Shown: positions 238 through 54,547 of the stretch, piece after piece
How positions within the stretch are numbered: the stretch's first letter is position 1
How the letters are laid out: each line of letters opens with the position of its first letter
NCBI GenBank assembly: GCA_004297825.1
Contig: SCSX01000036.1
Span: forward strand, 172,680-236,679
Origin: Spirochaetota bacterium
GTDB lineage: Bacteria; Spirochaetota; UBA4802; UBA5368
DNA: 64,000 bases
Direction: 5' to 3'
Position numbers and translations under genes: made by a program
Notes under the pieces: generated by a model
What the model was told of the DNA's origin: nothing
What the model saw: the letters and a program-made list of their open reading frames with translations, nothing else
Databases searched by the model: none

Positions 238-3200
238 TACAGAAACTGATCCGCTTCTCCGCGCATAACAGGATGCTCGTCATATTCATGATCGCGGCGG
301 CAATGTTATACGCCTCGTACGCGATCCAGAACATCCCGCTCGACGCGATACCGGATTTATCGGACACCCAGGTCATCATCTACACCCGCTGGGACCGGAG
401 CCCCGACATTATCGAGGACCAGGTCACCTTTCCGGTTATCTCGGCGCTCCTGGGCGCGCCCAGGGTGAAGACGATACGCGGCTTTTCGGACTTCGGGTTT
501 TCCTACGTGTACGTGATCTTTCACGACGGCACCGACATCTACTGGGCGCGCAGCCGGGTGACCGAGTATCTCTCGCGCATACAGGGAGCGCTTCCCGCCG
601 GCGCGAAGATGGAGCTGGGGCCCGACGCGACGGGCGTGGGCTGGGTTTACCAGTACGTCCTCGTGGATAAAAGCGGCAAGTTCAACCTCTCACAGCTTCG
701 CTCCTTCCAGGACTGGTACTTAAAATATTCCCTGCAGAGCGTGCAGGGAGTTTCGGAGGTGGCGACCATTGGCGGCTTCGAACGCCAGTACCAGGTGATC
801 GTGGACCCCAATCGGCTGCAAAGCTTCGGGCTCTCGATCATGGACGTGATGGAAGCCGTTAAGAAGGGGAACAATGAATCCGGCGGGAGGCTTCTTGAAT
901 GGAGCGGGCGCGAGTTCATGGTGCGCGCGCGCGGTTACGTGAAGGGGACCGAGGAGCTGGGAAATATCGTGGTGAAAACCGGCAAGGAAGGGACGCCGGT
1001 GATGCTCCGCCATGTGGGGACCGTGACCACGGGGCCGCAGATACGCCGCGGTGTCGCTGAGTATAACGGCCTGGGTGACACCGTGGGCGGGATCGTGGTC
1101 ATCCGCCACGGGGAAAATGCGCTCAACGTGATCGAGCGCGTGAAGGCGCGCATCGAGGAGATAAAGCCTTCGCTTCCCGCGGGCGTCGAGCTCGTCTCCG
1201 TCTACGACCGCTCGGAGCTCATCCATGCGTCCATCGACAACCTCAAGGAAGAACTCATCGTCGAAATGGCGATCGTTTCCCTGGTCATACTCGTGTTCCT
1301 GTGGCACATCCCCTCGGCGCTGGTGCCCATCATCACCATTCCCGTATCGGTCCTGCTCGCCTTCATCCCCATGTTCCACGCGGGGATAAGCTCCAACATC
1401 ATGAGCCTGGCGGGGATCGCGATATCCATAGGCGTGCTCGTGGACGGCGCGATCGTCGAGGTGGAGAACGCGTACAAAAAGATCGAGCTCTGGATCGAGG
1501 GGGGCAGGAAGGGCGACTTCCACGAGGTGCGCCTGCAGGCGCTGGTCGAGGTGGGGCCGTCGGTGTTCTTCTCGCTCCTCGTGATCGCGGTCTCGTTCCT
1601 GCCCATCTTCACGCTCGTGGACCAGGAGGGGCGCCTGTTCACGCCGCTCGCGTGGACGAAAACGCTGGCCCTTGCTCTGGCCGCGCTCCTGGCCGTGACG
1701 CTCGACCCGGCGATACGCATGCTTTTTTCCCGGGCCGATCCGATCAGGATCAAGAATGCCCTGCTGTCCAAGATCGTGAACACCGTCGCGGTGGGAAGGT
1801 ACTTCAAAGAGGAGGAGCACCCCGTCAGCAAAATCCTTTTCGCGTTATACGAAAAGCCTTGCCGCTGGGTGCTCGAACACCCGTTGAAAACCATACTTGC
1901 CGCGATATTCATCGTGGGCGTATCGATCCCCGTATATTTCCGTCTTGGCTCCGAATTCATGCCGCCCCTGAACGAGGGAACCATTCTCTATATGCCGACG
2001 ACCCTTCCCGGCATTTCCGTCACCGAGGCGTATAAACTTCTTCGAATACAGGACCGCATACTCAAGTCCTTTCCCGAGGTCGAGAGCGTGTTCGGCAAGG
2101 CGGGCCGCGCCGAGACAAGCACCGACCCCGCGCCCTTCTCCATGATGGAGACGACGGTGGTTCTGAAATCCCGGCTGGAATGGCGTGAGAAACCGCGCTG
2201 GTATTCGTCGTGGGCACCGGGATGGATGAAACGGGTTTTCCGTACCGTGTGGCATGACCGCATCAGCTATGACGAGCTCATCACACTGATGGATTCCGAG
2301 ATGCGGATACCCGGCGTATCCAATGCGTGGACCATGCCCATCAAGGGACGCATCGACATGCTCACCACGGGCGTACGCACGCCCATAGGCATAAAGGTAT
2401 TCGGTTCCGACTTGAAGGAGATACAGCGTATCGGCGAGGACATAGAACGAGCGCTCAAGGATTTTCCGGGCACGCGCAGCATCTTCGCTGAGCGCGTAGG
2501 CGGTGGCTATTACATGGACATCGTTCCCAAGCGTGAGCTGCTCGCACGCTACGGCCTCACCATTGACGATCTCCAGAACGTCGTCATGTCGGGCATAGGC
2601 GGCGACACGGTCACCACGTCGATCCAGGGCAGGGAGCGCTACTCGGTGAGCGTGCGCTTCCCGCGCGAGCTCAGGGGCGAGCTTGACCAGATGGAGCGCC
2701 TCACGGTGCGGACGATGGACGGCGCGAACATCCCCATCCGTGAGCTCGCGGAGCTTAAACTCACCTACGGACCTGCCATGATCCGCGATGAGAACGGCAT
2801 GCTCGCGGGCTACGTCTACGTGGACGTGACCGGGCGCGACGTGGGCGGGTACGTGGAAGAGGCGAAGGAGATCGTCAAAAAGAGCGTGAAGCTTCCCGCC
2901 GGCTACACCATGATCTGGAGCGGGCAGTATGAAAACATGCAGCGTGTCGCAGAGCGCCTCAAGCTCGTTATTCCCGTGACGCTCTTTCTCATCTTCATGC
3001 TCCTTTACTTTAACACTAAATCGGTGATCAAGACCGGCATTGTCATGCTCGCCGTCCCCTTCTCGCTCGTGGGCGCCGTGTGGCTCCTGTACGCTTTGGG
3101 CTACCAGGTGTCCATCGCCGTGTGGGTGGGCATGATCGCCCTCATGGGCCTGGACGCGGAGACCGGCGTCTTCATGCTGCTCTTCCTGGACCTGTCCTAC

Positions 3201-3476
3201 GAAGACGCGAAGGCGCGCGGCCGCCTCACGAACATGTACGAGCTCGAGGAGGCGATCATCCACGGCGCCGTCAAGCGCATCCGTCCCAAGATCATGACCG
3301 TGATGGCAGCCGCCATGGGCCTTATGCCCATCATGTGGTCCACCGGCGCCGGGGCGGACGTTATGAAGAGGATCGCGGCTCCCATGGTGGGGGGGCTGTT
3401 CACGTCGTTCCTGCTGGAGTTGCTGGTGTATCCGGCGGTGTATTTGCTGTGGAAGAAGAGAGAGTTGGGAGTGTAA
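234..3476 (+). CDS. czcA: Heavy-metal efflux RND permease, CusA/CzcA family (1080 aa)
   Basis: Full-length ~1080 aa, 12-TM RND architecture. Carries the conserved GVLVDGAIVEVEN motif and matches CusA/CzcA end to end. The antisense ORFs 720..1820 and 1845..3482 are artefacts of GC-rich coding DNA. Confidence 0.9.
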   Translation: MIQKLIRFSAHNRMLVIFMIAAAMLYASYAIQNIPLDAIPDLSDTQVIIYTRWDRSPDIIEDQVTFPVISALLGAPRVKTIRGFSDFGFSYVYVIFHDGTDIYWARSRVTEYLSRIQGALPAGAKMELGPDATGVGWVYQYVLVDKSGKFNLSQLRSFQDWYLKYSLQSVQGVSEVATIGGFERQYQVIVDPNRLQSFGLSIMDVMEAVKKGNNESGGRLLEWSGREFMVRARGYVKGTEELGNIVVKTGKEGTPVMLRHVGTVTTGPQIRRGVAEYNGLGDTVGGIVVIRHGENALNVIERVKARIEEIKPSLPAGVELVSVYDRSELIHASIDNLKEELIVEMAIVSLVILVFLWHIPSALVPIITIPVSVLLAFIPMFHAGISSNIMSLAGIAISIGVLVDGAIVEVENAYKKIELWIEGGRKGDFHEVRLQALVEVGPSVFFSLLVIAVSFLPIFTLVDQEGRLFTPLAWTKTLALALAALLAVTLDPAIRMLFSRADPIRIKNALLSKIVNTVAVGRYFKEEEHPVSKILFALYEKPCRWVLEHPLKTILAAIFIVGVSIPVYFRLGSEFMPPLNEGTILYMPTTLPGISVTEAYKLLRIQDRILKSFPEVESVFGKAGRAETSTDPAPFSMMETTVVLKSRLEWREKPRWYSSWAPGWMKRVFRTVWHDRISYDELITLMDSEMRIPGVSNAWTMPIKGRIDMLTTGVRTPIGIKVFGSDLKEIQRIGEDIERALKDFPGTRSIFAERVGGGYYMDIVPKRELLARYGLTIDDLQNVVMSGIGGDTVTTSIQGRERYSVSVRFPRELRGELDQMERLTVRTMDGANIPIRELAELKLTYGPAMIRDENGMLAGYVYVDVTGRDVGGYVEEAKEIVKKSVKLPAGYTMIWSGQYENMQRVAERLKLVIPVTLFLIFMLLYFNTKSVIKTGIVMLAVPFSLVGAVWLLYALGYQVSIAVWVGMIALMGLDAETGVFMLLFLDLSYEDAKARGRLTNMYELEEAIIHGAVKRIRPKIMTVMAAAMGLMPIMWSTGAGADVMKRIAAPMVGGLFTSFLLELLVYPAVYLLWKKRELGV

Positions 3477-3480
3477 GTAC

Positions 3481-3519
3481 AACGGAATTTAACAGGGATA
3501 TACAGGATGAGCAGGATTA
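3481..3519 (-). repeat. ATCCTGT-rich repeat element, copy E1-left (minus orientation)
   Basis: The reverse complement reads AATCCTGCTCATCCTGTATATCCCTGTTAAATTCCGTT. This matches copies at 3891-3930, 4139-4183 and 19105-19143 (rc), consensus AATCCTGTTAATCCTGTcTATCCCTGTTaAAT. Confidence 0.7.
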
Positions 3520-3890
3520 GTTAATTCTTTCAATGACAGTCTTCTATATTCCAGCCGCGAATTACCAAAATTGATAAGCAGTCCAACCTCAATACCGGTT
3601 GCCTTGAGGTAATTTATGATCTGTGCCTGATGTTCCGGTAATAGTTTTTTTATGGCCTTCAACTCGACTATGACCTTATCTTCTATCAATAAATCAGAAT
3701 AATATTCTCCGACACAATGATCTCTGAACATTACTTTGATCGGGAATTGCTTTTTTACGGAAAGTCCTTTTTCCTTTAATGTCAGAAATAGGGCATGTTC
3801 ATAAACAGATTCAAGAAAACCCACCCCAAGTTCGTTGATAACTTCAAACGAACATCCGATGACCATTTTTGATATTTCCTCATATTTCAT
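3489..3890 (-). CDS. GxxExxY family protein (PD-(D/E)XK-like). Start chosen at MKYEEISK; the annotated ORF runs on to 3923 through the flanking repeat.
   Basis: GVGFLESVYEHAL contains the G-x-x-E-x-x-Y motif and ...GIEVGLLINFG is typical of the family. AT-rich codon usage unlike the flanks. Both ends of the ORF run into copies of the ATCCTGT repeat element. Confidence 0.7.
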   Translation of the reverse strand: MKYEEISKMVIGCSFEVINELGVGFLESVYEHALFLTLKEKGLSVKKQFPIKVMFRDHCVGEYYSDLLIEDKVIVELKAIKKLLPEHQAQIINYLKATGIEVGLLINFGNSRLEYRRLSLKELTNPAHPVYPC

Positions 3891-3930
3891 ATCCTGTAAT
3901 CCTATATATCCCTGATAAATCAATTCGTAG
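3891..3930 (+). repeat. ATCCTGT-rich repeat element, copy E1-right (plus orientation)
   Basis: ATCCTGTAATCCTATATATCCCTGATAAATCAATTCGTAG. It is inverted relative to 3481-3519, so the two bracket the GxxExxY gene. Confidence 0.7.
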
Positions 3931-4090
3931 TCATAGCAGTCATATTAAATGAAAATAGATATCTGCATCTATTAATACTTTTCAAAGGGTTTTTTCCTGT
4001 GCTTTTTTCTGGGAAATTTGCCTTTTTTAATTTGTAGCACAGACATAGAGATCAGCGGTTTAGCTGTCGTGGAATTAAAGGAAATTAACA

Positions 4091-4183
4091 AGGCTGTACA
4101 GGATGGTCAGGATGAGTGGATTCTCTCATACCGCCCCCCAATCCTGTTAATCCTGTCTATCCCTGTTGAATCAATTCGTAAAG
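4091..4183. repeat. Complete palindromic copy (E2) of the ATCCTGT element, with no cargo gene
   Basis: Left arm 4091-4119 is AGGCTGTACAGGATGGTCAGGATGAGTGG (minus-type). Right arm 4139-4183 is CAATCCTGTTAATCCTGTCTATCCCTGTTGAATCAATTCGTAAAG. A ~20-nt spacer separates them, and the tail ...AATCAATTCGTA is shared with copy 3891-3930. Confidence 0.7.
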
Positions 4184-4251: not shown

Positions 4252-4872
4252 CTATAATTTCAACTGAGTATCAGTCACATGCTTTTCCCTGTAAGGAAAT
4301 CCCTTTTCAAACTCCTCCAGCTCCGTGGTGTCGATCTTAAACACCGGATCTTCATGGAATTTTCCCCGGACCCCCTTCAATCCGTTTTCCTGCAGCTCCA
4401 GCGCCATGAACGCATCGAAATTTGCGCCCTCCGATGTCGATATGCCATATTTCTGGGCATTTTCGAATCCAAATCGGTGGTAATACGCGGGGTTTCCAAA
4501 TATTATAATCGCCTTGTATCCCATGCTTTTCGCGCACGCAATCGAATGCCTCATCAATTGCGATCCGACGCCCTTCCCCTGGTGCGACGGCAGTACGCTC
4601 AAGGGCCCCATGCATAGTACTTCGTGCGCGATGCCTGTATCGTCAACCACGCTCGCTTTCGAATACACGATGTTGCCGATTATTTTGCCTTCATGAATCG
4701 CGACCATATCCAGCTCGGCGATAAAGGCGGGAACCTGACGCAGATTGCGAAGAAGGAGATGCTCGTCGCAGCCGAGTTTATAGATATCCCAGAAGGCTTC
4801 GCGGGTCAGGAATTCTGTTTCCTGGAAGTCGGCGGGGGTTGAGAGGCGTATGGTTGGGTTCATGGTTTTCAT
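4252..4872 (-). CDS. GNAT family N-acetyltransferase (YhbS-like)
   Basis: 206 aa containing the acetyl-CoA-binding motif ...QGKGVGSQLMRHSIACAKSMGYKAIIIFGNPAYYHRFGF. An alternative start at MNPTIRL (4863) is possible. Confidence 0.8.
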   Translation of the reverse strand: MKTMNPTIRLSTPADFQETEFLTREAFWDIYKLGCDEHLLLRNLRQVPAFIAELDMVAIHEGKIIGNIVYSKASVVDDTGIAHEVLCMGPLSVLPSHQGKGVGSQLMRHSIACAKSMGYKAIIIFGNPAYYHRFGFENAQKYGISTSEGANFDAFMALELQENGLKGVRGKFHEDPVFKIDTTELEEFEKGFPYREKHVTDTQLKL

Positions 4873-4995
4873 TCCTTATCTTTAATCGATTGTGTTGTCC
4901 AGTTTTATTGGGGAACGGCATAGTAGCGTCCTGATTGTACTAAATACTCTTTGGAAACAATCTTCTATAGCAGGGCAGCGGCGGTAATTATCAAC

Positions 4996-6234
4996 TCATG
5001 CCTTTTTTATATCCTTTTGAACTTGGTGCCATGATCCTTTGGTTTTTCTAATTTGGCGATTGATAATAATGCTATCATAATCATTGGGATCGAATTCCGA
5101 TTCACATTCTGAGGAAGGGGCATTTTGAATACTTTTTATTTCATCTATGATATCTTTATCATCTGCATGCTTGCTGGAATTACTATCAAAGTTTTTCATT
5201 CTCCAACGTGGTGCGTATGTATCCCACAACCTTGCAACAAGTAATCCGTGCTCCTTCGGTGGGCTGGGGGCGAATGAAAATAATCCTTTATCTTTTTCAC
5301 TCTGCGGATACTCTGAATAATATTTATTAATTTCACGAAGATCAGCTTTCAATTTATTTCCCCATACAAACTCTTGATCATCTCTTAAAAATAAAGGCGC
5401 ACATTTTTGGTGCAATTTGTCAGAAGAAACAAATAACATACAGAATGGAAGGTATAACAGATAAGCCATATCAATACGATTTGATGGCCGATGAGAAGAT
5501 ATTAAATTTGCGGCAATAGCTATTTGGAAAAATATTTCGACTATCATTATATATGCCACATACGGGGCATGCATGACTAGAGGTGGGCAATTAGCTAGAT
5601 AATATCGTTTTAGTATTTTAGGGTGTAAGTGTTCGGGGACGTTAAATAGTATTATGGCATATTTTAACAAATCAATACCATTCTCTCTTTTCGTAACAAT
5701 ATTTTCTGATATTGTTTTTGCTTCTTTGAGAGATCTGCAAGACTTGTTACTTATTCCCAGTTGACGTAATATATTTGCAAAAGACTCCAGATCAAGTGCT
5801 TTTAGTGATTCCCGCCATAAATACGCATAATCACGCTCAATGCTAGAAAACTCGCGTTTTTGCCATCGCGAAAATACTATAGCTTCAGGTGTATTTTCAA
5901 ATACTACATTATGTTTATTATTACTTTTAACATACCGACCCCCTGCAATTGGGATTTGTCCGGTCATAGGAACTCGAGAACCAAGAAGATTATTTATTGC
6001 CAATATATCATGATGAATATTTGGGCCGCCATGCATCTCAGGGAATTTATCAGCAATAATACCAACTTCTTGCTCAGTTGAACGACCTTCTCGAATTGAT
6101 TTGCTTAAATCAGCCAAAGTTTCAATATAAAAAATAGGGCAGATGTTCGCTATAAAAAAATGATCAAACCAAACTGATTCATCAACACTAAGCGATTGCA
6201 GAAATGATTTATCAAAAAGAGATATTGGCCCCAT
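4996..6234 (-). CDS. Hypothetical protein, 412 aa, strongly AT-rich (foreign composition); I recognise no domain
   Basis: Long uninterrupted ORF in DNA far more AT-rich than the ~65% GC background. Lys/Asn/Ile-rich, with no motif I can assign. It lies inside the repeat-bounded island. Confidence 0.6.
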   Translation of the reverse strand: MGPISLFDKSFLQSLSVDESVWFDHFFIANICPIFYIETLADLSKSIREGRSTEQEVGIIADKFPEMHGGPNIHHDILAINNLLGSRVPMTGQIPIAGGRYVKSNNKHNVVFENTPEAIVFSRWQKREFSSIERDYAYLWRESLKALDLESFANILRQLGISNKSCRSLKEAKTISENIVTKRENGIDLLKYAIILFNVPEHLHPKILKRYYLANCPPLVMHAPYVAYIMIVEIFFQIAIAANLISSHRPSNRIDMAYLLYLPFCMLFVSSDKLHQKCAPLFLRDDQEFVWGNKLKADLREINKYYSEYPQSEKDKGLFSFAPSPPKEHGLLVARLWDTYAPRWRMKNFDSNSSKHADDKDIIDEIKSIQNAPSSECESEFDPNDYDSIIINRQIRKTKGSWHQVQKDIKKA

Positions 6235-6284
6235 TGCTTTTTTATCTCATCGGAGATTCAAATATCTTTGGTTAAGTTTTCCAG

Positions 6285-6320
6285 TAATATACAGGAATTT
6301 AACAGATTCACTATCCCCAA
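6285..6320 (-). repeat. Partial copy (E4) of the ATCCTGT element at the right edge of the AT-rich island
   Basis: CAGGAATTTAACAG (6293-6306) is the reverse complement of the CTGTTAAATTCCTG core found in E1-left, and it is followed by ...ATTCACTATCC. Confidence 0.45.
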
Positions 6321-31122: not shown

Positions 31123-32271
31123 CTACGGGACGTACACCCTAGGCACGCGCATGCTGATGCCGCACAGCATCTCGTACGGAATGGTGCCCGTCTTGTCACA
31201 GAGCTCTTCGATGGGAATCATGCACCCGTCCATCTCGCCGAACAGCAGGACGTCGTCGCCGTTATACGCCGTCCCCCCGGGACCGATATCGACCATCATC
31301 TGGTCCATGCAGATGGTGCCCGCCGCCGGGCAGCGCCGGCCCCGAATGACCACCTCGCTCCTGTTGGACAGGAGGCGCGCGTAGCCGTCGCCGTAGCCTA
31401 CGGGGAGCGTGACCACGCGCGTTTGCTCACTGGTGACGTAGGTATGGTTGTAGCTTATGCCCGTTCCCGCCGGGACCACCTTGAAGTACGACACCTTCGT
31501 CTTGAGCGTCATCGCGGGAAGTATCCTTCTGCCGGCGTATTCCCGCTCCGGGGCATACCCGTACGGGTCGCACCCGTAGAGCATGATGCCGGGGCGGACC
31601 ATTGTGAGATGCGCGTCCGGGTACGACAATATGCCCGCCGAGTTTGCGAGGTGCACGAGGGGCGGCAGGATGTTTCTCTGCGCCATGTAGTTCGCAGTGT
31701 TCGCGAAGCGGGCGATCTGCGTATCGGTGAAGGCGCGGTCCGATTCCGCCTTCGCGAGGTGCGAGAACACCCCCGTGACCGATATGTCGGGAAGGTCGAG
31801 CGTGCCCTGGATGAAGCGCTCGGCGTTGTACCAGTGGACGCCGATACGCTCCATGCCTGTGTCGATCTTCATCTGGACACGCGCGGTCTTTCCCCGGCGC
31901 GCCGCGACCTCCGCAATGGCGCGCGACTTGTCGAGCGACGAGCTCGTGATCTCGATGTCGTGCTCCAGGAAATCGGCGATCTGGTCGGTGTTGATCGCGC
32001 CGCATACAAGGATGGGCGCCGTGGTCCCGGACCGGCGCAGGTACACGGCCTCCTCGAGGTACGCGACTCCCAGGCAGGACGCGCCCGCCGCGAGGAATAT
32101 ATCGGACACCTCCTTAATGCCGTGGCCGTAGGCGTTCGCCTTCACCATTGCCATGACCTGCACCCCGGGTCCCGTGAGCGCGCGCACGGTTTCCATGTTG
32201 TGCCGGAGACGGGAAAGGGACACCTCCGCCCTCGTGGGCCTGTTCTGGTAGGTTTCGATAATGAGTTTCAT
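31123..32271 (-). CDS. alr: Alanine racemase
   Basis: PLP-lysine motif ...AMVKANAYGHGI.... Full-length alignment to Alr, including ...VGYGDGY... and ...RVVTLPVGYGDGY. Start at MKLIIETY; the ORF read-through to 32457 is rejected. Confidence 0.9.
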   Translation of the reverse strand: MKLIIETYQNRPTRAEVSLSRLRHNMETVRALTGPGVQVMAMVKANAYGHGIKEVSDIFLAAGASCLGVAYLEEAVYLRRSGTTAPILVCGAINTDQIADFLEHDIEITSSSLDKSRAIAEVAARRGKTARVQMKIDTGMERIGVHWYNAERFIQGTLDLPDISVTGVFSHLAKAESDRAFTDTQIARFANTANYMAQRNILPPLVHLANSAGILSYPDAHLTMVRPGIMLYGCDPYGYAPEREYAGRRILPAMTLKTKVSYFKVVPAGTGISYNHTYVTSEQTRVVTLPVGYGDGYARLLSNRSEVVIRGRRCPAAGTICMDQMMVDIGPGGTAYNGDDVLLFGEMDGCMIPIEELCDKTGTIPYEMLCGISMRVPRVYVP

Positions 32272-32418
32272 GGGCGCCGCCTTTTCGGAAAGTACGGTAG
32301 GGGCCGGAAAGAATAAAATGCAACCAAATTTCCCCCGGCCGCGGTTGGACCGAAATTTTGAGAAAACCTCGTCGACGCCGTCGGGGCGTGTGTATATTAT
32401 GGTGACGAGGACAAAGAA

Positions 32419-32443
32419 GCCCCCCGACCCCCCGAAGGGGGGC
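32419..32443. repeat. Left G/C-hairpin inverted repeat flanking the DUF559 cassette
   Basis: GCCCCCCGACCCCCCGAAGGGGGGC. It matches the reverse complement of 32856-32880 (GCCCCCCGACCCCCCAGAGGGGGGC) at 23 of 25 positions. Confidence 0.75.
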
Positions 32444-32485
32444 AATAGCGCGATCAAATGTTAAAAGTTCACAAGGTGCGAATAT

Positions 32486-32848
32486 TTGAATGCTGGAATA
32501 AAATCACCTCGATACGTGATTGAGCTTGCAAGGGGAATGAGGAAAAATCCAACTGCGGCAGAAAAGAAGTTATGGGAAGAATTGAAAGAGAAAAGGTTCG
32601 ACGGATTAAAATTCAGGAATCAGCATCCCGTGTTCAGGTATATACTTGATTTCTATTGTCATGAAAAGAAGCTGGCAATTGAGGTTGATGGCGATATCCA
32701 TATTAATCAAAAGGAAACTGATGCGTATCGTGAGGACTACTTGAAAAGTCTTGGAATTGTAACAGTGCGCGTGAAGAATATCGATATTGAAGATAGAATT
32801 GAGGAAGTTCTTATCAGGATAAGAAGCGAATTGCGTGATTTGTATTGA
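32486..32848 (+). CDS. DUF559 (Vsr-like) endonuclease-domain protein
   Basis: ...RKNPTAAEKKLWEELKEKRFDGLKFRNQHPVFRYILDFYCHEKKLAIEVDGDIH... is typical of DUF559. The gene is AT-rich relative to its flanks. Confidence 0.75.
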   Translation: MNAGIKSPRYVIELARGMRKNPTAAEKKLWEELKEKRFDGLKFRNQHPVFRYILDFYCHEKKLAIEVDGDIHINQKETDAYREDYLKSLGIVTVRVKNIDIEDRIEEVLIRIRSELRDLY

Positions 32849-32855
32849 TTGCCAT

Positions 32856-32880
32856 GCCCCCCTCTGGGGGGTCGGGGGGC
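32856..32880. repeat. Right G/C-hairpin inverted repeat flanking the DUF559 cassette
   Basis: GCCCCCCTCTGGGGGGTCGGGGGGC, the inverted partner of 32419-32443. Confidence 0.75.
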
Positions 32881-32901
32881 AGAGCGAATGGAGCGTGAAA
32901 C

Positions 32902-35148
32902 ATGAACATTAGCGACGAACTAAACCAGATAATCATGGCAGCCTTCAACGAGGCGAAAAACCGCAAGCACGAGTTTCTCACCCCGGAGCACATGCTCTAC
33001 GCCTCGCTCTTTTTCAAGGAGGGAATCGATATCGTGAAGGGATGCGGCGGGGACGTCGAGGCGCTCAAGGGCGAGCTCGAGACGCACATGACGGAAAAAA
33101 TTCCCCGTGCGGCGGACGATATCGAGCCCGTGCAGTCGCTGGGCTTCCAGAACGTGATGGAGCGCGCCATCTGGCACACGGCGTCGGCGCAGAAGGAGAC
33201 GCTCGACCTGGGCGACGTGGTCGTCTCGATGTTCCAGGAGCACGAATCCCACGCGGCCTTTTTTTTAAAGAAGCAGGGAATCAGCAGGCTCGACGTGCTG
33301 AACTACATCTCGCACGGTGTGGGCGTCGTCCCCGGCGAGGACGAGGGCAAGGCCGACGAGGCCGGGGCGGGCGAGGCCGCCGAAAAACCGAAGGACGACG
33401 CGAAGATTCTCAAATCGTTCACCGTGGAGCTCACGGCCCGCGCGCGCGCGGGCGAGATCGAGCCGCTCATAGGGCGCGACGAGATTCTCGAACGGACCGT
33501 GCAGGTCCTCTGCCGGCGCTTCAAGAACAACCCGGTGCACGTGGGCGAGCCCGGCGTGGGCAAGACCGCGATCACCGAAGGCCTCGCGCTGCGCATCGCG
33601 GAGGGGAAGGTCCCCGACCTCCTGAAAAACTTCCGCATCTTTTCGCTCGACATGGGCTCGCTCCTGGCCGGGACGCGCTACCGCGGCGATTTCGAGGAGC
33701 GTATGAAGCGGGTGCTTGCCGCCCTTTCGAAGATGGACGACGTGATCCTCTTCATCGACGAGATTCACACCATCGTGGGCGCGGGCGCCGTCTCGGGCGG
33801 CTCCATGGACGCGTCCAACATACTGAAGCCCGCCCTGGCCAGCGGCAAGCTCCGCTGCGTGGGCGCGACGACCGACGACGAGTACCGCAAATACTTCAGC
33901 AAGGACGGCGCCCTCTCGCGCCGCTTCCAGAAGATCGAAGTGCCCGAACCCTCGATAGACGAGACACGGCAGATCCTCGCGGGAATCCGCGACAAGTACG
34001 AGTCCTACCACGGCGTGAAATACACCGAGGACGCCCTCACGGCGGCCTCCGAGCTTTCCGCGAAATTCATCACCGACCGGCACCTCCCGGACAAGGCGAT
34101 CGACGTGATCGACGAGGCGGGCGCGTACGCGCGCCTGTACGGGACCAGCGGGAGCGACGGCGTGATCACGCACCTGGACATGGAGCGCGTCGTCTCGCGT
34201 ATGGCGAAGATTCCGGAGAAGAGCGTCACCTCCTCCGAGCTCGACAAGCTGCGCGACCTCGAAAAGCTCCTTAAAGAGCGCATCTTCGGGCAGGAATCGG
34301 CGGTGAACATGGTGGTCGAGGCGATAAAGCGCTCGCGCGCGGGATTCCGCGAACCGGGCAAGCCCATCGCCTCCTTCCTGTTCGTGGGGCCCACCGGCGT
34401 GGGCAAGACCGAGCTCGCGCGCCAACTCGCCGCGGTGATGGGGGTATCGCTCCACCGCTTCGACATGAGCGAGTACCAGGAGAAGCATACCGTGGCGCGT
34501 CTCATAGGCGCGCCCCCCGGCTACGTGGGCTACGAGGAGGGGGGCCTCCTGACCGAGTACATACGGAAGACGCCGTACGCGGTGCTACTCCTGGACGAGA
34601 TCGAGAAGGCGCACTCCGACATCTTCAACACGCTTCTTCAAGTGATGGATTACGCGACCCTCACCGACAACACCGGCAAGAAGGCTGATTTCCGCAACGT
34701 CGTGATCATCATGACCTCGAACGCGGGGGCGCGTGAAATCGGAAGGCAGCGCATCGGCTTCGAGGAGGCGCCCGTGAACATGGACGCCCTCTCGGCCGCG
34801 GTGGATCGCATCTTCGCCCCCGAGTTCCGCAACCGCCTGGACGCGGTGGTCCAGTTCAACGGCCTCACCCTGGACATCGTGCTGCAGATCGTGAACAAGG
34901 CCCTGGGAGAATTCCGCACGATGCTCGCGGAGAAGAAGGTGGAGCTTCGCGTCACGGACGAGTGCTCATTGTGGCTCGCGAAGAAGGGCTTCTCGCCGGA
35001 ATTCGGCGCGCGCGAGATCGCGCGCCTGGTGCAGGACAAGGTGAAGCGCTTCTTCATCGACGAGGTCCTCTTCGGCAGTCTTTCTAAGGGGGGCGTCGCC
35101 GAGGCGTACGTCGAGAACGACGACGTGGCGATCAGGGTGCTCGAATAG
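32902..35148 (+). CDS. clpA: ATP-dependent Clp protease ATP-binding subunit ClpA
   Basis: N-domain followed by two AAA+ modules with Walker A motifs [10 protein letters not shown] and [10 protein letters not shown], and sensor motifs. 748 aa. The alternative-frame and antisense ORFs 33042..34274 and 33265..34488 are rejected. Confidence 0.9.
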
Positions 35149-45286: not shown

Positions 45287-46675
45287 TTAAAGTATTTTGT
45301 GCGGATTCAGGATGCCCGCGGGATCGAACGCCGTTTTGATGCGCCGCAGCAATTCGATCTCCTCATGCGAAAGCGCCATGTTCAGATAGTCCCGCCGCGT
45401 AAACCCGATTCCATGTTCCCCCGTAATCGTGCCCCCGTGCGCGATCGCGATCTCATAGATCCTGCGCTTCATCCCCGGAAGCATCGCGTTCCAGGCCGGG
45501 TATTCGATTTCGTCTTTTAGGGCGTCGATATGCACATTCCCGTCCCCCGCGTGCCCGAACATTATGGAGCGCAGGCCCAGGGATTCCAGGTATGACTTGA
45601 CCTCTCTCAGGAAGGGGGGAATTTCGGAGCGCGGGACCACGGTATCCTCGGCAAGAAAAACAGGGCTCTCTTTCGTAATGGCCTCGCGAATGGCGCGCCT
45701 TGCTTTCCATATGCGTTCGCTCTGCCGACGGGTTTCCGCGACCAGTACCCGTTCGGGTGAAATGCTCAGGATCCCCGTGAGACGCTCAAGATCGCCGTTT
45801 ACCGATTCTGCCGTCGTCCCGTCAAGCTGGACGAGCAGGTGCGCGCGTGCGCGGGGAAAGGGTATCTCCTGCCCGAAATGCCGCGCCACCAGCCGGATGG
45901 CGTCCTCTTCCATGAATTCCAGGGCCGCAGGGACGATCCTGCCGGATATGATCCGGAAGACGTCTTCTACGGCTTCATCCAGTGATTCGTACGGGATGAG
46001 CAGGTCCATAGTATAGGGGGCCGCGGGGACGAGTCTCAGGAGGATTTTCGTGATAACCGCAAGCGTCCCCTCGGAGCCGGTTAGAATACCGACAAGGTTG
46101 TACCCCGTCGCGTTTTTTACATACTTGCCACCGGTGGTGATTATTGAGCCGTCCGTGAGCACGCATTCGAGACCCAGGATATAATCCTTGGTGGTCCCGT
46201 ATTTCACGGCGCGGGGTCCCCCGGCCCCTTCTGCGACATTGCCTCCAATCGAACAGGATTCCAGGCTGGAAGGATCGGGCGGATACATGAGGCCCATCTC
46301 CAGTGCGGCACGCTGAATGTCACCCGTAATCGCCCCCGGCTCGACAAGCGCCGTCATGTTGCGCGGGTCTATTTCGATAATCCTGTTCATGCGTTCCATC
46401 GAAAGGACCAGGCCGCCGGCGACGGGAATGGCGCCGCCGGTGACGCCGGTACCGGTTCCACGAGGGATGACCGGCACCCGGTGACGCGAGCATGTCTTCA
46501 TGACCTCGCTTACCTCGGCCGCGCTTTGCACATGTACGACAAGGTCGGGAAGATGACTGCAATCCGACGTCTCATCCCTTGAGTACCGCTCCAGTGTATC
46601 GGTGTCTCGGTATATCCGCGCCGGCCCGAGTTTTTGAATTAGTTCTCCCAGCACAGATTCGATCGCACGGGTCAT
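45287..46675 (-). CDS. glcD: FAD-linked oxidase (GlcD / D-lactate dehydrogenase family)
   Basis: FAD-binding PCMH domain (...RVPVIPRGTGTGVTGGA...) and the C-terminal FAD-oxidase domain (...HAGDGNVH...). 462 aa. Confidence 0.8.
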   Translation of the reverse strand: MTRAIESVLGELIQKLGPARIYRDTDTLERYSRDETSDCSHLPDLVVHVQSAAEVSEVMKTCSRHRVPVIPRGTGTGVTGGAIPVAGGLVLSMERMNRIIEIDPRNMTALVEPGAITGDIQRAALEMGLMYPPDPSSLESCSIGGNVAEGAGGPRAVKYGTTKDYILGLECVLTDGSIITTGGKYVKNATGYNLVGILTGSEGTLAVITKILLRLVPAAPYTMDLLIPYESLDEAVEDVFRIISGRIVPAALEFMEEDAIRLVARHFGQEIPFPRARAHLLVQLDGTTAESVNGDLERLTGILSISPERVLVAETRRQSERIWKARRAIREAITKESPVFLAEDTVVPRSEIPPFLREVKSYLESLGLRSIMFGHAGDGNVHIDALKDEIEYPAWNAMLPGMKRRIYEIAIAHGGTITGEHGIGFTRRDYLNMALSHEEIELLRRIKTAFDPAGILNPHKIL

Positions 46676-46848
46676 TATCCCCTCCTGTACGGCAGTATCA
46701 GAACATATCCGGCCATTGATTATTTCAATAAGTTTCTGAAAATCGGAATTTTCATCAATTTCAAATGCGAATGCGCCGTTCCTAAAAAGTTCTTTACTTG
46801 TAACAATTCCACCGGCTATCCTGATAAAGGAAGGAACGAGCAGGAGGA

Positions 46849-47322
46849 TTGGTAAGTCCCATGATTCTCAAGAAGAGCAACATTTTATCCAACAAGTTTG
46901 TTTTACTCATTGAAGATAATATCCAAGAGATCGCCGAGCAGTTTATGAACGACCTGCTGAAAAGCCCGGAAACGATCGCGTACCGGCAGTTGGGCCGACA
47001 GGACGTATACGAGGCTGCCTATAGGCGCCTTCATGAGATTTCGCAATGGATTTCCAAGAATTATCCTAAACAGGAAATAGAGCGCTACTATCGGCAGATC
47101 GGCCGTGAGAGATATGAGCAGGGGATACCGTTTTCCGCCGCGTTCAGGTTCCTTGTATTGTTGAAGAGGCATATGTGGCTTTTTGTATTGAACAAACTGT
47201 ATTACGACGCGACCATATATGAACAGGCCCTCGATCTCAACAACAGGGTCGTGCTATACTTCGACCGGGCCGCCTACTACCTCCTGTGCGGTTACGAAGA
47301 TATGCTTAACAAGAAATGGTAA
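46849..47322 (+). CDS. Hypothetical protein (AT-rich, 157 aa)
   Basis: ORF with an atypically low GC for this window, immediately upstream of the rRNA promoters; no motif recognised. Confidence 0.4.
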   Translation: MVSPMILKKSNILSNKFVLLIEDNIQEIAEQFMNDLLKSPETIAYRQLGRQDVYEAAYRRLHEISQWISKNYPKQEIERYYRQIGRERYEQGIPFSAAFRFLVLLKRHMWLFVLNKLYYDATIYEQALDLNNRVVLYFDRAAYYLLCGYEDMLNKKW

Positions 47323-47339
47323 AAAAACTATTAATATGA

Positions 47340-47452
47340 TTGACAGGTACCTACAATAAATTTTATGGTCATGTCCACGCAAGAGCGTACATAAAAGCAG
47401 GTTAAATTTTTTAAAAAATTTACTTGACGTAGGATGTCACAATCCATATATG
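47340..47452 (+). promoter_or_regulatory. Tandem candidate rRNA promoters P1/P2
   Basis: P1 is TTGACA (47340-45), a 17-18 nt spacer, then TATGGT. P2 is TTGACG (47424-29), a 17-nt spacer, then TATATG (47447-52). P2 is preceded by an A/T-rich UP-like tract AAATTTTTTAAAAAATTTA. Confidence 0.5.
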
Positions 47453-47742
47453 TACTTCACGTTGTCGTGAATCAGGTATGTGTTCTTTAAAAAGTTTTGG
47501 GTGTTTGACGGCATACTGCATTAAGTTACAAAGCAGCTTGACTCCGAGTAGCGGGTCTTGTAACTTGTAACTGCATAGCTTACAAGCTCTATACAGCGAA
47601 ATTTCACATATCGATTCCCAGAACGCTGGGGATTTTTTATCTCCTAATACTGGTTCTTTGAAAACTGAGTAGTATTGTTTTGTTGAAAGTCTCACGTCAA
47701 TTTTCGTAACTAAAACTCTCAATATAGTCTTTTCTATCACGG

Positions 47743-52790: not shown

Positions 52791-53157
52791 TGCGCACGGT
52801 AGGGCGCACGCTTGGTGGTGAAAGTCCACTACGGAGGCTGATAGCACCAACCGTTAGCTCAAGGCACCAGAAGTAGGCGCTTGAGGCGAGGGTGTCCATC
52901 GCGAGGTGGCCGGCTTTCTGCCTCGGCCGGCATTAGTGCGTCCATGCACGTCAGAATCCGAAGGAAGCCGGCGGCAAAGTCTCGGCCCGACGAACAGGCA
53001 AGCCGTTTTTGTGCGTCCTGCACCGGTCTTGCACGCCGCCTTCATGGCGGCAGAAATCACATGAGGCCGGTCAGACCGGGCGAGTTTGCCTAACAAAACG
53101 AAGCCCTATGCTATCAAGGGTCTGGCAGGTAGATGTTCCCATCCGTGGTGGTTGCAA

Positions 53158-53245
53158 ATTTCGCGGAGAAGATATGGTGCAGGATATGGAGGGAGTGCTC
53201 GCTCTACAAGGGGTATTTCCGGCCCATGAAGCGGGGGCCGTAGAC
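53158..53245. repeat. Repeat family R2, copy 2
   Basis: See 25775-25860; ~85% identity over ~85 nt. Confidence 0.7.
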
Positions 53246-53370
53246 ATTTCTGATTTCTGTGCGATTCCGATTATGGTTTGACTTTTCATCGCCTTTTCTT
53301 AATATTTTAGAAACGGTCAGGGGCCGTTTTATTCAGTCTTTTAAAAAAAGCGCGATTTTGGGGTTTTAGC

Positions 53371-53436
53371 AAATTTTAAGCCTCTAGCCTGGGGGCTTTT
53401 TGTCGGGGAAGGGCAGCTTCATTATGGAGAACATTA
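53371..53436. repeat. Repeat family R3, long copy upstream of and overlapping the ECF sigma start
   Basis: AAATTTTAAGCCTCTAGCCTGGGGGCTTTTTGTCGGGGAAGGGCAGCTTCATTATGGAGAACA. It is nearly identical to 54548-54613. Confidence 0.7.
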
Positions 53437-54224
53437 CCGAAAAACCGGTTCTCTCACAAGAGCACTTTGCCGAAATCTACACAGACAATTTCAACAAGGT
53501 TTTCTCCTTTTCGCTTCGTATTGTCGGTGACACGCATCTTGCTGAAGATATTACCCAAGAAACGTTTATTCAGGTATATCATAACTACCACACATTCAGA
53601 GAAGAAAGTTTGCTTAGCACATGGATTCTGACAATCACCCGGAACATCTGCTATCGCAATATCAGGAAGGCTAAAAGAAGTTCGTTCCGTTCGATCGAAA
53701 ATCTGATCAAAACAAAAAGTTCACCATATCATGAATCCCCGGATGGTATGTTTGAGAAACAATATTATACCGATCAGATCAAGGAAGGATGCCTGCTCGG
53801 ACTTCTGAGATCTCTCTCATTCTTCCAGCGCAGCGCCTTTATTCTTAATGTTCTGAACGATCTTCCCGTAACCGTGGTTTCGACGATTCTTGAAAAATCG
53901 GATAATTCCACGCGGATTCTGATCCATAGGGCGAGACACAATCTAAAGAATTTTTTGTGCGGCAATTGTTCTCTTTATCAGAAGGGGAATGCTTGCCGAT
54001 GCGAAAATCTGATCGAGTTCTCACTTAAACAAGGATGGATAAAAAAGTATAATCCCGCGATTCCGATTAAAAAGGTCGAACAAGAACTCAAGGAGTTCAA
54101 AGACGAAATTCTCCTTTATAAAACACTCCCCGACAACGGCGCTGACGAAACGCTTGCCGCTCGATGCGCGACGATGATAAAAAATCACGCTTCAATAATA
54201 TTTTCCGACAAAAAAGTGAAATAA
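53424..54224 (+). CDS. ECF-type sigma-70 family sigma factor with a Cys-rich C-terminal extension
   Basis: Region 2 ...DITQETFIQVYHNYHTF...LSTWILTITRNICYRNIRK. Region 4 ...LNDLPVTVVSTILEKSDNSTRILIHRARHNL. An extra ~90-aa tail carries C-x2-C-x9-C-x-C (CGNCSLYQKGNACRC). Start chosen at MENITEKP. Confidence 0.8.
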   Translation: MENITEKPVLSQEHFAEIYTDNFNKVFSFSLRIVGDTHLAEDITQETFIQVYHNYHTFREESLLSTWILTITRNICYRNIRKAKRSSFRSIENLIKTKSSPYHESPDGMFEKQYYTDQIKEGCLLGLLRSLSFFQRSAFILNVLNDLPVTVVSTILEKSDNSTRILIHRARHNLKNFLCGNCSLYQKGNACRCENLIEFSLKQGWIKKYNPAIPIKKVEQELKEFKDEILLYKTLPDNGADETLAARCATMIKNHASIIFSDKKVK

Positions 54225-54271
54225 ACTCCGGCTCACAGTATCCAACGATTATCATATCAGAGGAGCGCATA

Positions 54272-54475
54272 ATGAAATATCTAGTGAGAGTCAGAGTGAA
54301 CCTGGTGACCATGACGGAATTCGGCCAAAGGCTTCAGAAAGGCGAACTCGATAGAAGCTGCATACGAGGTGAGACCTTTTGTCTTGAAGACGATCCCGCT
54401 GTGGGATTCAGCGTCTGGGAAGCTGAATCGGACGAAAAGTTCGACTCTGTGTTTAAATCGTGGAAACCATATTAG
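54272..54475 (+). CDS. Small hypothetical protein (68 aa) in the ECF sigma operon
   Basis: RBS AGGAG lies 7 nt upstream. Sequence: MKYLVRVRVNLVTMTEFGQRLQKGELDRSCIRGETFCLEDDPAVGFSVWEAESDEKFDSVFKSWKPY. Confidence 0.45.
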   Translation: MKYLVRVRVNLVTMTEFGQRLQKGELDRSCIRGETFCLEDDPAVGFSVWEAESDEKFDSVFKSWKPY

Positions 54476-54547
54476 CTAGAGGTTGAAGTCAGAAAAGTAA
54501 TTACACCTATCGAGGCAATGCAATCGCTTCTGTCACAAAAATAATAA

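Follow-up and report, generated by a model that had tools for sequence, protein, structure and literature searches.

A 64,000-nucleotide stretch of the genome of a Spirochaetota bacterium (contig SCSX01000036.1, positions 172,680 to 236,679), analysed here over its full length and referred to as the window, contains between the genes alr and clpA a small AT-rich gene for a DUF559 protein, enclosed by two short, inverted, G/C-rich repeats that we call arms. The best explanation for this module is that it is a discrete unit, in which a DUF559 gene lies in an inverted pair of elements of the BoxC/PIT/triplex-motif (TM) class, and that it belongs to a family found across bacterial phyla. As to its nature, the balance tips slightly towards a selfish, nuclease-carrying member of the triplex-repeat family. 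The cassette measures 462 bp from arm to arm and is composed as follows.

32419 to 32444, + strand: left arm, GCCCCCC-GA-CCCCCC-GAA-GGGGGGC-A, with box A (C6), stem B (C6), loop and stem B' (G6)
32472 to 32477, + strand: Shine-Dalgarno-like AAGGTG, read from the sequence, 8 nt upstream of the DUF559 TTG
32486 to 32848, + strand: AT-rich gene for a DUF559 (Vsr-like PD-(D/E)xK) endonuclease, 120 aa, TTG start, Pfam PF04480
32855 to 32880, + strand: right arm, T-GCCCCCC-TCT-GGGGGG-TC-GGGGGGC, with blocks B, loop, B' and A', the inverse of the left arm

An earlier note on this DNA had described a pair of 25-nt arms, reverse complementary at 23 positions and each bearing its own C6-N3-G6 hairpin, around an AT-rich 120-aa DUF559 gene. 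This description proved exact. The 25-mer GCCCCCCGACCCCCCGAAGGGGGGC occupies positions 32419-32443 and its reverse complement, with 2 mismatches, positions 32856-32880; at up to 3 mismatches these are the only 2 matches in the 64 kb, with 0 expected from 100 shuffles, and one C6-N3-G6 hairpin lies within each. The inverted repeat grows to 26 nt, of which 24 (92%) are complementary. The note had also suggested a search for more arm copies, and the window holds none beyond these two: the looser pattern C5-N1-4-C5-N2-5-G5 is present at the two arms only. A generic triplex-motif finder (block length 6, 1 mismatch) was too permissive, with 1-4 matches in shuffled sequence, and served only to confirm the two arms. 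DUF559 is the sole open reading frame (ORF) inside the cassette, and its base composition sets it apart from its surroundings. In 200-nt windows, GC content is 0.38-0.46 over the cassette as compared to 0.60-0.68 in the flanks; the coding sequence itself has a GC content of 0.38 versus 0.61 for its flanks, and GC at third codon positions (GC3) is 0.388 for DUF559, 0.869 for alr and 0.891 for clpA.

The translation from the TTG, which starts with LNAGIKSPRYVIELA, lines up with the N-termini of homologues, while the NCBI annotation of the same gene (P0001) gives 103 aa from an ATG at 32537. The protein matches the Pfam DUF559 profile (PF04480) over positions 5-108 of 109 (E=1.4e-30; 105.8 bits, cut-off 20.6), as well as the DUF559 structure in PDB entry 3HRL (E=3.8e-17). 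Foldseek searches with its AlphaFold model (pLDDT 87.4) ranked 3HRL first (E=4e-8, target-normalised TM 0.90); next came the I-Bth0305I homing endonuclease, matched in its catalytic domain (E=1.5e-4, target-normalised TM 0.77), and after it E. coli Vsr (1CW0/1VSR). I-Bth0305I, a real homing endonuclease, is thus the nearest structural relative of characterised function. Among 39 sequences, residues D55, E66, G69 and H72 are invariant and conservation of D68 is 90% or more; we take these conserved residues to correspond to D51/H64/H69 of the Vsr active site. Comparison with the copy in the nearest relative gave a dN/dS of 0.11, indicating purifying selection. Taken together, these data point to an intact, selected gene for a predicted nuclease of the Vsr-like PD-(D/E)xK type.

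The arms resemble a class of repeats that has been known since the 1990s and is widespread in Enterobacteria, cyanobacteria and other groups. Many bacteria, among them E. coli, Neisseria and cyanobacteria, have these repeats in abundance, and no enzyme or mechanism of their spread is known (PMC4666352, where the earlier BoxC/PIT work of Bachellier and of Hoyne/Maher is cited). TM repeats consist of three G/C-rich blocks separated by loops of 1-6 nt, two being pyrimidine and one purine, or the complement. Two of the blocks form a Watson-Crick hairpin, which the third mirrors; the repeats are associated with variable loci and local genome instability (PMC4666352). The E. coli version, TMECO, has the consensus CCCTCNCCC-N3-6-GGGNGAGGG-N3-GGGNGAGGG, is present in 23 copies in strain K-12, and forms a triplex in vitro, as assessed by circular dichroism and nuclear magnetic resonance (PMC4666352). 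With 6-nt blocks and loops of 2-3 nt, the window arms, C6-GA-C6-GAA-G6 and C6-TCT-G6-TC-G6, fall inside the ITxF range quoted in the same paper. Because the blocks of the window arms are 6-nt homopolymers, their mirror symmetry is trivial. It is not trivial in related cassettes, where box A of the non-homopolymer arms (39 arms) mirrors stem B with a 77% match, compared to 45% when aligned as a direct repeat. By their sequence, the arms therefore have the intrastrand-triplex architecture of BoxC/PIT/TM repeats, and they may fold as triplexes.

The association between gene and arms extends far beyond this locus. In a set of 80 scorable DUF559 loci from metagenomes, flanking inverted arms, counted at a score of at least 30, were found at 51, as against 1 of 225 displaced control windows from the same loci (Mann-Whitney p=4e-27). 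The sequence types of the arms vary and include C5/G5 runs, CCCCTCTCC/GGAGAGGGG and an outer ACCTCACCCC box; the plan is constant across loci: box A is set off by a short spacer from a hairpin of stem B, loop and stem B', and the order is mirrored at the other end. The module occurs at unrelated sites in many phyla, between genes, within operons, and in-frame in conserved genes. Homologues 57-60% identical to the window protein have arms built in this way too; they lie in the hsdR-hsdM spacer (L001), between cdhC and cdhD (L002), or with genes for an epimerase and an AMP ligase on either side (L003-L009). In 64 of 71 loci (p=2e-11), GC content is lower in the DUF559 core than in the DNA around it, as in the window. 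No target-site duplication was apparent: over 36 loci, the longest flanking direct repeat averages 1.08, versus 1.06±0.21 in shuffled pairings. Intergenic copies are co-directional with the upstream gene at 37 of 48 loci (77%, p=2e-4), consistent with expression by read-through.

Three DUF559 copies with 94-95% identity (L141, L218, L219) were considered as candidates for recent transposition and rejected, as they occupy an orthologous locus in related Leptospirales and are thus not new insertions. One of them, L219 (Leptospirales metagenome-assembled genome (MAG) CAZQCS010000679), carries at 985-1792, just past the right arm, an extra segment of about 808 bp with a 237-aa ORF without Pfam match; this segment starts about 90 bp after the DUF559 stop codon and is absent at the orthologous L141 and L218.

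At least 13 of 92 unique DUF559 copies are in-frame insertions in longer ORFs, whose Pfam domains identify them as PriA, HsdM, HsdS, GlgB, N6_N4 methylases, MetH (at two different positions) and methionyl-tRNA synthetase (MetRS). DUF559 splits the host Pfam domain in MetH, MetRS and HsdM (N6_Mtase domain), and sits between domains in PriA, HsdS, GlgB and the N6_N4 methylases. The ends of the insert were mapped residue by residue in one case, MetRS: by comparison with PDB 1RQG, 184 residues replace 6, and the insert has a translated arm at either end, APPTPQRGE on the N-terminal and LPPSGGGG on the C-terminal side. More generally, translated arms encode PPxPPxGG-like linkers. No intein motifs were found at the in-frame junctions examined, so that the inserts are most simply read as translated through. 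A DUF559 copy of another kind, L121 in Neolewinella lacunae (NZ_JACSIT010000139, ~1200-2600, minus strand), takes the endonuclease position of a DnaE intein (CVTGDTLV...NNILLHN/C); it is flanked by CCCCACCCCCGGCCCCTCCCCACAGGGGAGGGG-type arms, and ahead of it lie cargo-less units of about 58 aa, three in tandem and in-frame.

Gene-less arms occur as well. When GTDB genomes were scanned for the exact arm motif CCCCCCGACCCCCCNNNGGGGGG, at least 120 loci matched; among the matches listed, DUF559 lies near 7 of 120, and at least 37 cargo-less loci come from Neolewinella lacunae. Other genomes hold dozens of exact motif copies. Cargo-less inverted doublets span 60-250 bp overall, with examples of 60-100 bp in a Caldilineaceae MAG and of about 170 bp in a related Spirochaetes MAG, and solo cargo-less arms exist too, some of them in related Spirochaetota. 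At L204, L132, L109, L128, L160 and L185, cargo-less arms or doublets lie in-frame in long ORFs, including a ValRS-like gene (...LYYLRYKIA-PPTPQGG-DGSDYIVVATTRPET) and a gene for a MeaB/ArgK-like GTPase, in contrast to the "always intergenic" description given for the E. coli repeats. Two arrays were also observed. In a Lewinellaceae MAG (L139, 1749-3200), 10 copies of the arm motif form a tandem array with a period of about 156 bp. In the hsdR-hsdM spacer of L001 (ENA contig_63475, 2660-3950), AT-rich units that measure about 180 or 106 nt and are bounded by arms are densely arrayed around DUF559, and both arms adjoining the gene share one orientation.

The abundance of gene-less arms raises the question of whether DUF559 is only a passenger, the arms being mobile through another enzyme or through replication or repair errors, and the gene being captured repeatedly or homing between existing doublets. 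We regard this as unlikely, though as a contender to be taken seriously. It would account for the low share of exact-motif loci with DUF559 nearby and the many cargo-less Neolewinella copies, for solo arms that lie in-frame in genes with no nuclease present, and for arm orientation that varies in some loci. What it leaves unexplained is that the same protein family recurs across phyla and arm types, unlike an accidental capture, and that no other gene family was found between such arms in the loci examined. In addition, the whole arm-gene-arm unit interrupts conserved genes, with arms at the very ends of the MetRS insert, and according to Holder et al., neither a transposase nor an integrase lies in the vicinity of TMECO sites (PMC4666352).

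Taken together, the unrelated sites, the arms at the insert ends in the mapped case, the lack of target duplication, the low GC content and the cargo-less arms argue that the module moves, or once moved, as one piece. The earlier note had read the cassette as a mobile mini-cassette, either homing-endonuclease-like or a MITE with cargo; this reading gains support at the level of the family, from the unrelated sites, the in-frame interruption of conserved domains and the gene-less arms.

Several observations weigh against a selfish, mobile module. Nuclease activity, arm binding and transposition are, for every member, proposed properties, and no PD-(D/E)xK nuclease is known to carry out strand transfer by itself. 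At 29 of the 80 DUF559 loci (36%), flanking arms score below threshold, and same-orientation or "inside-out" arms occur at L001, L125, L030, L066, L067 and L071, a variability that fits a looser association better than it fits fixed transposon ends. The abundant arm type of Neolewinella is unlike the arms of the one DUF559 copy seen there. Finally, for a repeat class that is dispersed in many copies, the window has only the two arms, and nothing shows current mobility at this locus, where no further arm copy lies within 64 kb and the site is shared with a relative.

At the locus itself, the cassette lies, as the earlier note had proposed, in the spacer between alr and clpA, two divergent genes that are both confirmed by Pfam. 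The features surrounding it are listed below.

31123 to 32271, - strand: alr (alanine racemase; Pfam Ala_racemase_N and _C), the divergent left neighbour, with its start codon 147 nt from the left arm
32372 to 32400, + strand: promoter-like site found by consensus scan, TCGACG, 17-nt spacer, TATTAT, 19 nt upstream of the left arm
32890 to 32904, + strand: clpA ribosome-binding site (GGAG) and ATG, from the sequence and ORF list
32902 to 35148, + strand: clpA, identified by Pfam

The right arm ends 9 nt before the GGAG and 21 nt before the ATG of clpA, and a terminator scan found no intrinsic terminator on the + strand at either arm, for want of a U tract; a weak minus-strand match at 32439-32420 is the sole one at the arms. 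This arrangement suggests that the cassette lies inside the clpA 5' leader and that clpA would have to be transcribed through it. The site at 32372-32400, a consensus match, is the likely candidate for the promoter of a cassette-plus-clpA transcript. The earlier note had placed the cassette in the alr-clpA promoter region: the alr-clpA spacer is right, but the cassette is rather part of a probably transcribed clpA leader, downstream of the promoter-like site. With its own Shine-Dalgarno sequence and TTG start and no terminator in between, DUF559 is probably expressed by read-through.

Of the relatives sampled, the closest (Alr 83% and ClpA 90% identical; L089-L091, L123) has the same cassette between these two genes, and its orientation in each of the relative's three contigs is that of the window. 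A unique inverted repeat, together with relatives that have DUF559 at this site but no boundary signature, had been named by the earlier note as the finding that would speak against a cassette; instead, the relative has the gene at this site and conserves the arms on both of its boundaries. Compared to L089, the left arm is identical at 21 of 26 positions and the right arm at 24 of 26. By contrast, the segment from the left arm to the DUF559 start codon matches at 13 of 41 positions, which is the random level, that from the right arm to the clpA ATG at 6 of 21, and the spacer outside the left arm at 96 of 157; the promoter-like block is kept in the alignment while the rest of that spacer diverged. 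Synonymous divergence of DUF559 is saturated (pS 0.705, dS ~2.1), as compared to pS 0.44 and dS 0.67 for alr and pS 0.40 and dS 0.58 for clpA, and both DUF559 copies have a GC3 of 0.388 in host genomes of GC3 ~0.88. The arms are thus the conserved part of the cassette, and the divergence of the cargo is about three times that of the flanking genes. Either the cargo may have been swapped or re-acquired between the arms, or it may evolve about three times faster while being held AT-rich. Conserved arms around a far more diverged cargo and inner spacers would also fit the passenger explanation, as an exchange of cargo between fixed arms.

In another relative (P0106; Alr 84% identical), 332 bp without a DUF559 ORF separate alr from a divergent upstream gene, and the alr-clpA adjacency is absent in relatives with an Alr identity of 74-76%. 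The best reading is that the cassette already resided between alr and clpA before the nearest sampled relative split off, and that the module is evolutionarily mobile and stably resident here.

Such stability could also be expected if the gene served the host. In this scenario, DUF559 would be a solitary Vsr-like nuclease for mismatches or repair, or a housekeeping nuclease of another kind, and the arms would be cis elements for its expression, such as an mRNA-stabilising hairpin, an insulator or an RNase III stem, that separate its transcript from clpA. Purifying selection on the gene is in line with it, as is the retention of one site in two lineages here and in the Leptospirales trio (L141, L218, L219). 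Caulobacter VsrA, a DUF559 protein, is functionally tied to a cytosine methyltransferase (PMC12907096), and many of the in-frame hosts are DNA methyltransferases. The two arms are moreover predicted to pair in RNA as a G/C helix of about 25 bp around the ORF (z=-4.6). On the sense strand, however, mismatches between the arms show no excess of the G:U type over the C:A type (55 vs 74, p=0.11), on which ground we rejected RNA-level selection on arm pairing; the missing U tract likewise led us to reject the arms as intrinsic terminators of the + strand. A host function would leave the in-frame insertions in MetRS, MetH, PriA and GlgB unexplained, along with the cargo-less arms and the persistent AT-richness in a genome with a GC3 of 0.88. 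No cytosine methyltransferase gene lies beside the cassette, whose neighbours are alr and clpA. Altogether, we consider a host function distinctly improbable.

The cassette has no significant match in Rfam, and no intron match. A match to the Yfr20 small RNA (sRNA) at 32794-32880, over the 3' end of DUF559 and the right arm, reached 31.9 bits where the gathering score is 44, with several non-canonical pairs, and was judged to be due to chance; Yfr20 is a light-regulated sRNA of Prochlorococcus, and its paper makes no tie to endonuclease genes. Membership in a defence system was rejected as well, since a PADLOC search gave weak matches only.

The 26-nt inverted repeats that flank the segment could also be recombination sites of an invertible switch, which would flip the cassette and toggle DUF559 and clpA. 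In a systematic screen, DUF559 was indeed enriched (odds ratio 14) among predicted targets of programmed inversion (PMC9881135). We nevertheless find a switch hardly credible: the ORF list contains no recombinase gene adjoining the cassette, the orientation of intergenic copies relative to the upstream gene is non-random and identical in the window and the relative's three contigs, and in-frame copies could not bear inversion.

The link between DUF559 and triplex repeats can be followed into E. coli. In strain K-12, ycjD is the only gene annotated as DUF559. A TM-like hairpin marks its stop codon, and a complete TMECO lies 165 bp further downstream; in this region (L215, 1351200-1351830), part of the ycjD 3' end is duplicated behind the gene, ahead of the TMECO. 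A DUF559 gene on the Picosynechococcus plasmid pAQ6 is flanked likewise. The K-12-type fabI-TMECO-ycjD-sapF segment is covered to at least 80% in 3346 of 5426 complete E. coli genomes. The fabI-ycjD-sapF interval, which is polymorphic, was tried as a comparison of filled and empty sites and rejected, as O157:H7 strain MB9-1 (L217/L220) has there an 8-kb TetR/RND/MFS efflux cluster and no clean empty site. In open-access full text, we found no paper that links DUF559 to BoxC/PIT/triplex repeats.

For a selfish module of this kind, we propose that the predicted DUF559 nuclease would act on the folded DNA of the arms, be it a hairpin, a triplex or a cruciform. Breakage at the folded arms, followed by repair or recombination, could then copy the module, or cargo-less arms, to new sites. 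In line with this, Caulobacter VsrA, itself a DUF559 protein, sets off the DNA-damage (SOS) response in vivo (PMC12907096). DUF559 would thereby relate to triplex repeats as RAYT does to REP/REPIN, except that the whole module would move as well. A bolder version is that DUF559 is the missing mobility or maintenance enzyme of BoxC/PIT/triplex repeats; bacteria would then share a REP/RAYT-like system built on a Vsr-like PD-(D/E)xK nuclease that recognises folded DNA, and the autonomous arm-nuclease-arm form of this system would insert without target duplication, even in-frame in essential genes, with the arms translated as Pro/Gly linkers. We put this forward tentatively, as a possibility on which we would not yet wager.

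DUF559 is a very large family of unknown function, and the link would give it a testable one, that of a structure-specific nuclease on non-B DNA. If true, it would also provide the repeat family with an autonomous, protein-coding member, and a small nuclease that recognises a folded DNA motif could serve as a tool. The insertions expose whole nuclease domains that, with neither an intein nor an intron apparatus of their own, sit in-frame in MetRS, MetH, PriA, HsdM and a DnaE intein. This matters for gene annotation and for the question of how selfish elements persist within essential genes.

Elsewhere in the window, a second nuclease gene of low GC content (0.34-0.40), of the PDDEXK_3/GxxExxY type (PF13366, E=1e-42; TIGR04256), lies on the minus strand at 3489-3923, directly after the stop codon of a 1080-aa ORF. 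CAGGAT-rich inverted repeats bracket it: 3487-3518 pairs with 4140-4171 (32 nt, 88%) and with 3899-3920 (22 nt, 91%). A small AT-rich PD-(D/E)xK gene with short flanking inverted repeats may thus be a recurrent design. Further low-GC islands are found at 4700-6300, 46500-47600 and 53000-54500 (GC 0.33-0.45, window mean 0.58), in or near which lie the following genes.

4252 to 4872: GNAT gene, near a low-GC island
4996 to 6234, - strand: 412-aa ORF without Pfam match, in a low-GC island
46849 to 47322: RsbRD_N-like ORF, weak match, in a low-GC island
53400 to 54224: gene for an ECF-type sigma factor, in a low-GC island

How does the module compare to known systems? Its arms share their layout with TMECO, the right arm being CCCCCC-TCT-GGGGGG-TC-GGGGGG. 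Published TM repeats are multi-copy, solitary and intergenic, with no mention of a flanked nuclease gene or of in-frame insertion, whereas the module has a gene and the window holds two copies in 64 kb. A parallel in organisation exists with REPtrons and REPINs, reportedly described by Nunvar in 2010, by Bertels and Rainey in 2011 and by Ton-Hoang in 2012. These systems likewise have one small nuclease gene flanked by inverted short structured repeats, each with a 5' box and a hairpin; the repeat is also found solo and as gene-less inverted doublets, and vertical inheritance of the gene at one fixed position is common. RAYT is a single-strand transposase of the HUH/Y1 (IS200/IS605-like) type, and RAYT genes are not known to lie in-frame in other genes. 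DUF559 differs on both counts, having a PD-(D/E)xK fold rather than HUH/Y1 and going in-frame, and the window holds two arms rather than abundant copies. IS200/IS605 elements share subterminal hairpins at each end, the lack of target duplication and small gene-less derivatives; they differ in ends that are not inverted repeats, in their Y1 HUH transposase with or without TnpB, and in insertion beside a specific tetra- or pentanucleotide. Classical miniature inverted-repeat transposable elements (MITEs) have target-site duplications and a cognate DDE transposase; the cassette has terminal inverted repeats (26 nt, 92%), and neither a target-site duplication nor a transposase was found for it.

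With the Vsr-like (EDxHD) homing endonucleases, such as I-Bth0305I (PDB 3R3P), the module shares the catalytic fold and the habit of small, AT-rich and, on our reading, selfish genes that interrupt conserved genes (Dassa 2009, PMC2677866; Taylor 2011, PMC3239194). Homing endonuclease genes ride introns or inteins or adjoin one target site, whereas the module has its own arms and many sites, and no ribozyme or splicing motifs, with the exception of L121 in its DnaE intein. In the window and its closest relative, the site is the same; across the family, the sites are many and unrelated. Vsr and Caulobacter VsrA share fold and catalytic residues with the window protein, but a cytosine methyltransferase gene typically accompanies vsr, unlike the window DUF559, and neither has been described with triplex-motif arms or as insertions in other genes. 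The in-frame copies call to mind the Rickettsia palindromic elements (RPEs), which Ogata et al. reportedly described in 2000 as short palindromic repeats lying between genes and, translated, in-frame in protein genes. The module, too, goes in-frame, its insert probably being translated as an extra peptide; RPEs, for their part, have no ORF of their own. In conclusion, the DUF559 family and the BoxC/PIT/TM repeats are both known parts; their link is, as far as open-access papers show, undescribed, and there is a substantial chance that it represents something more distinct.

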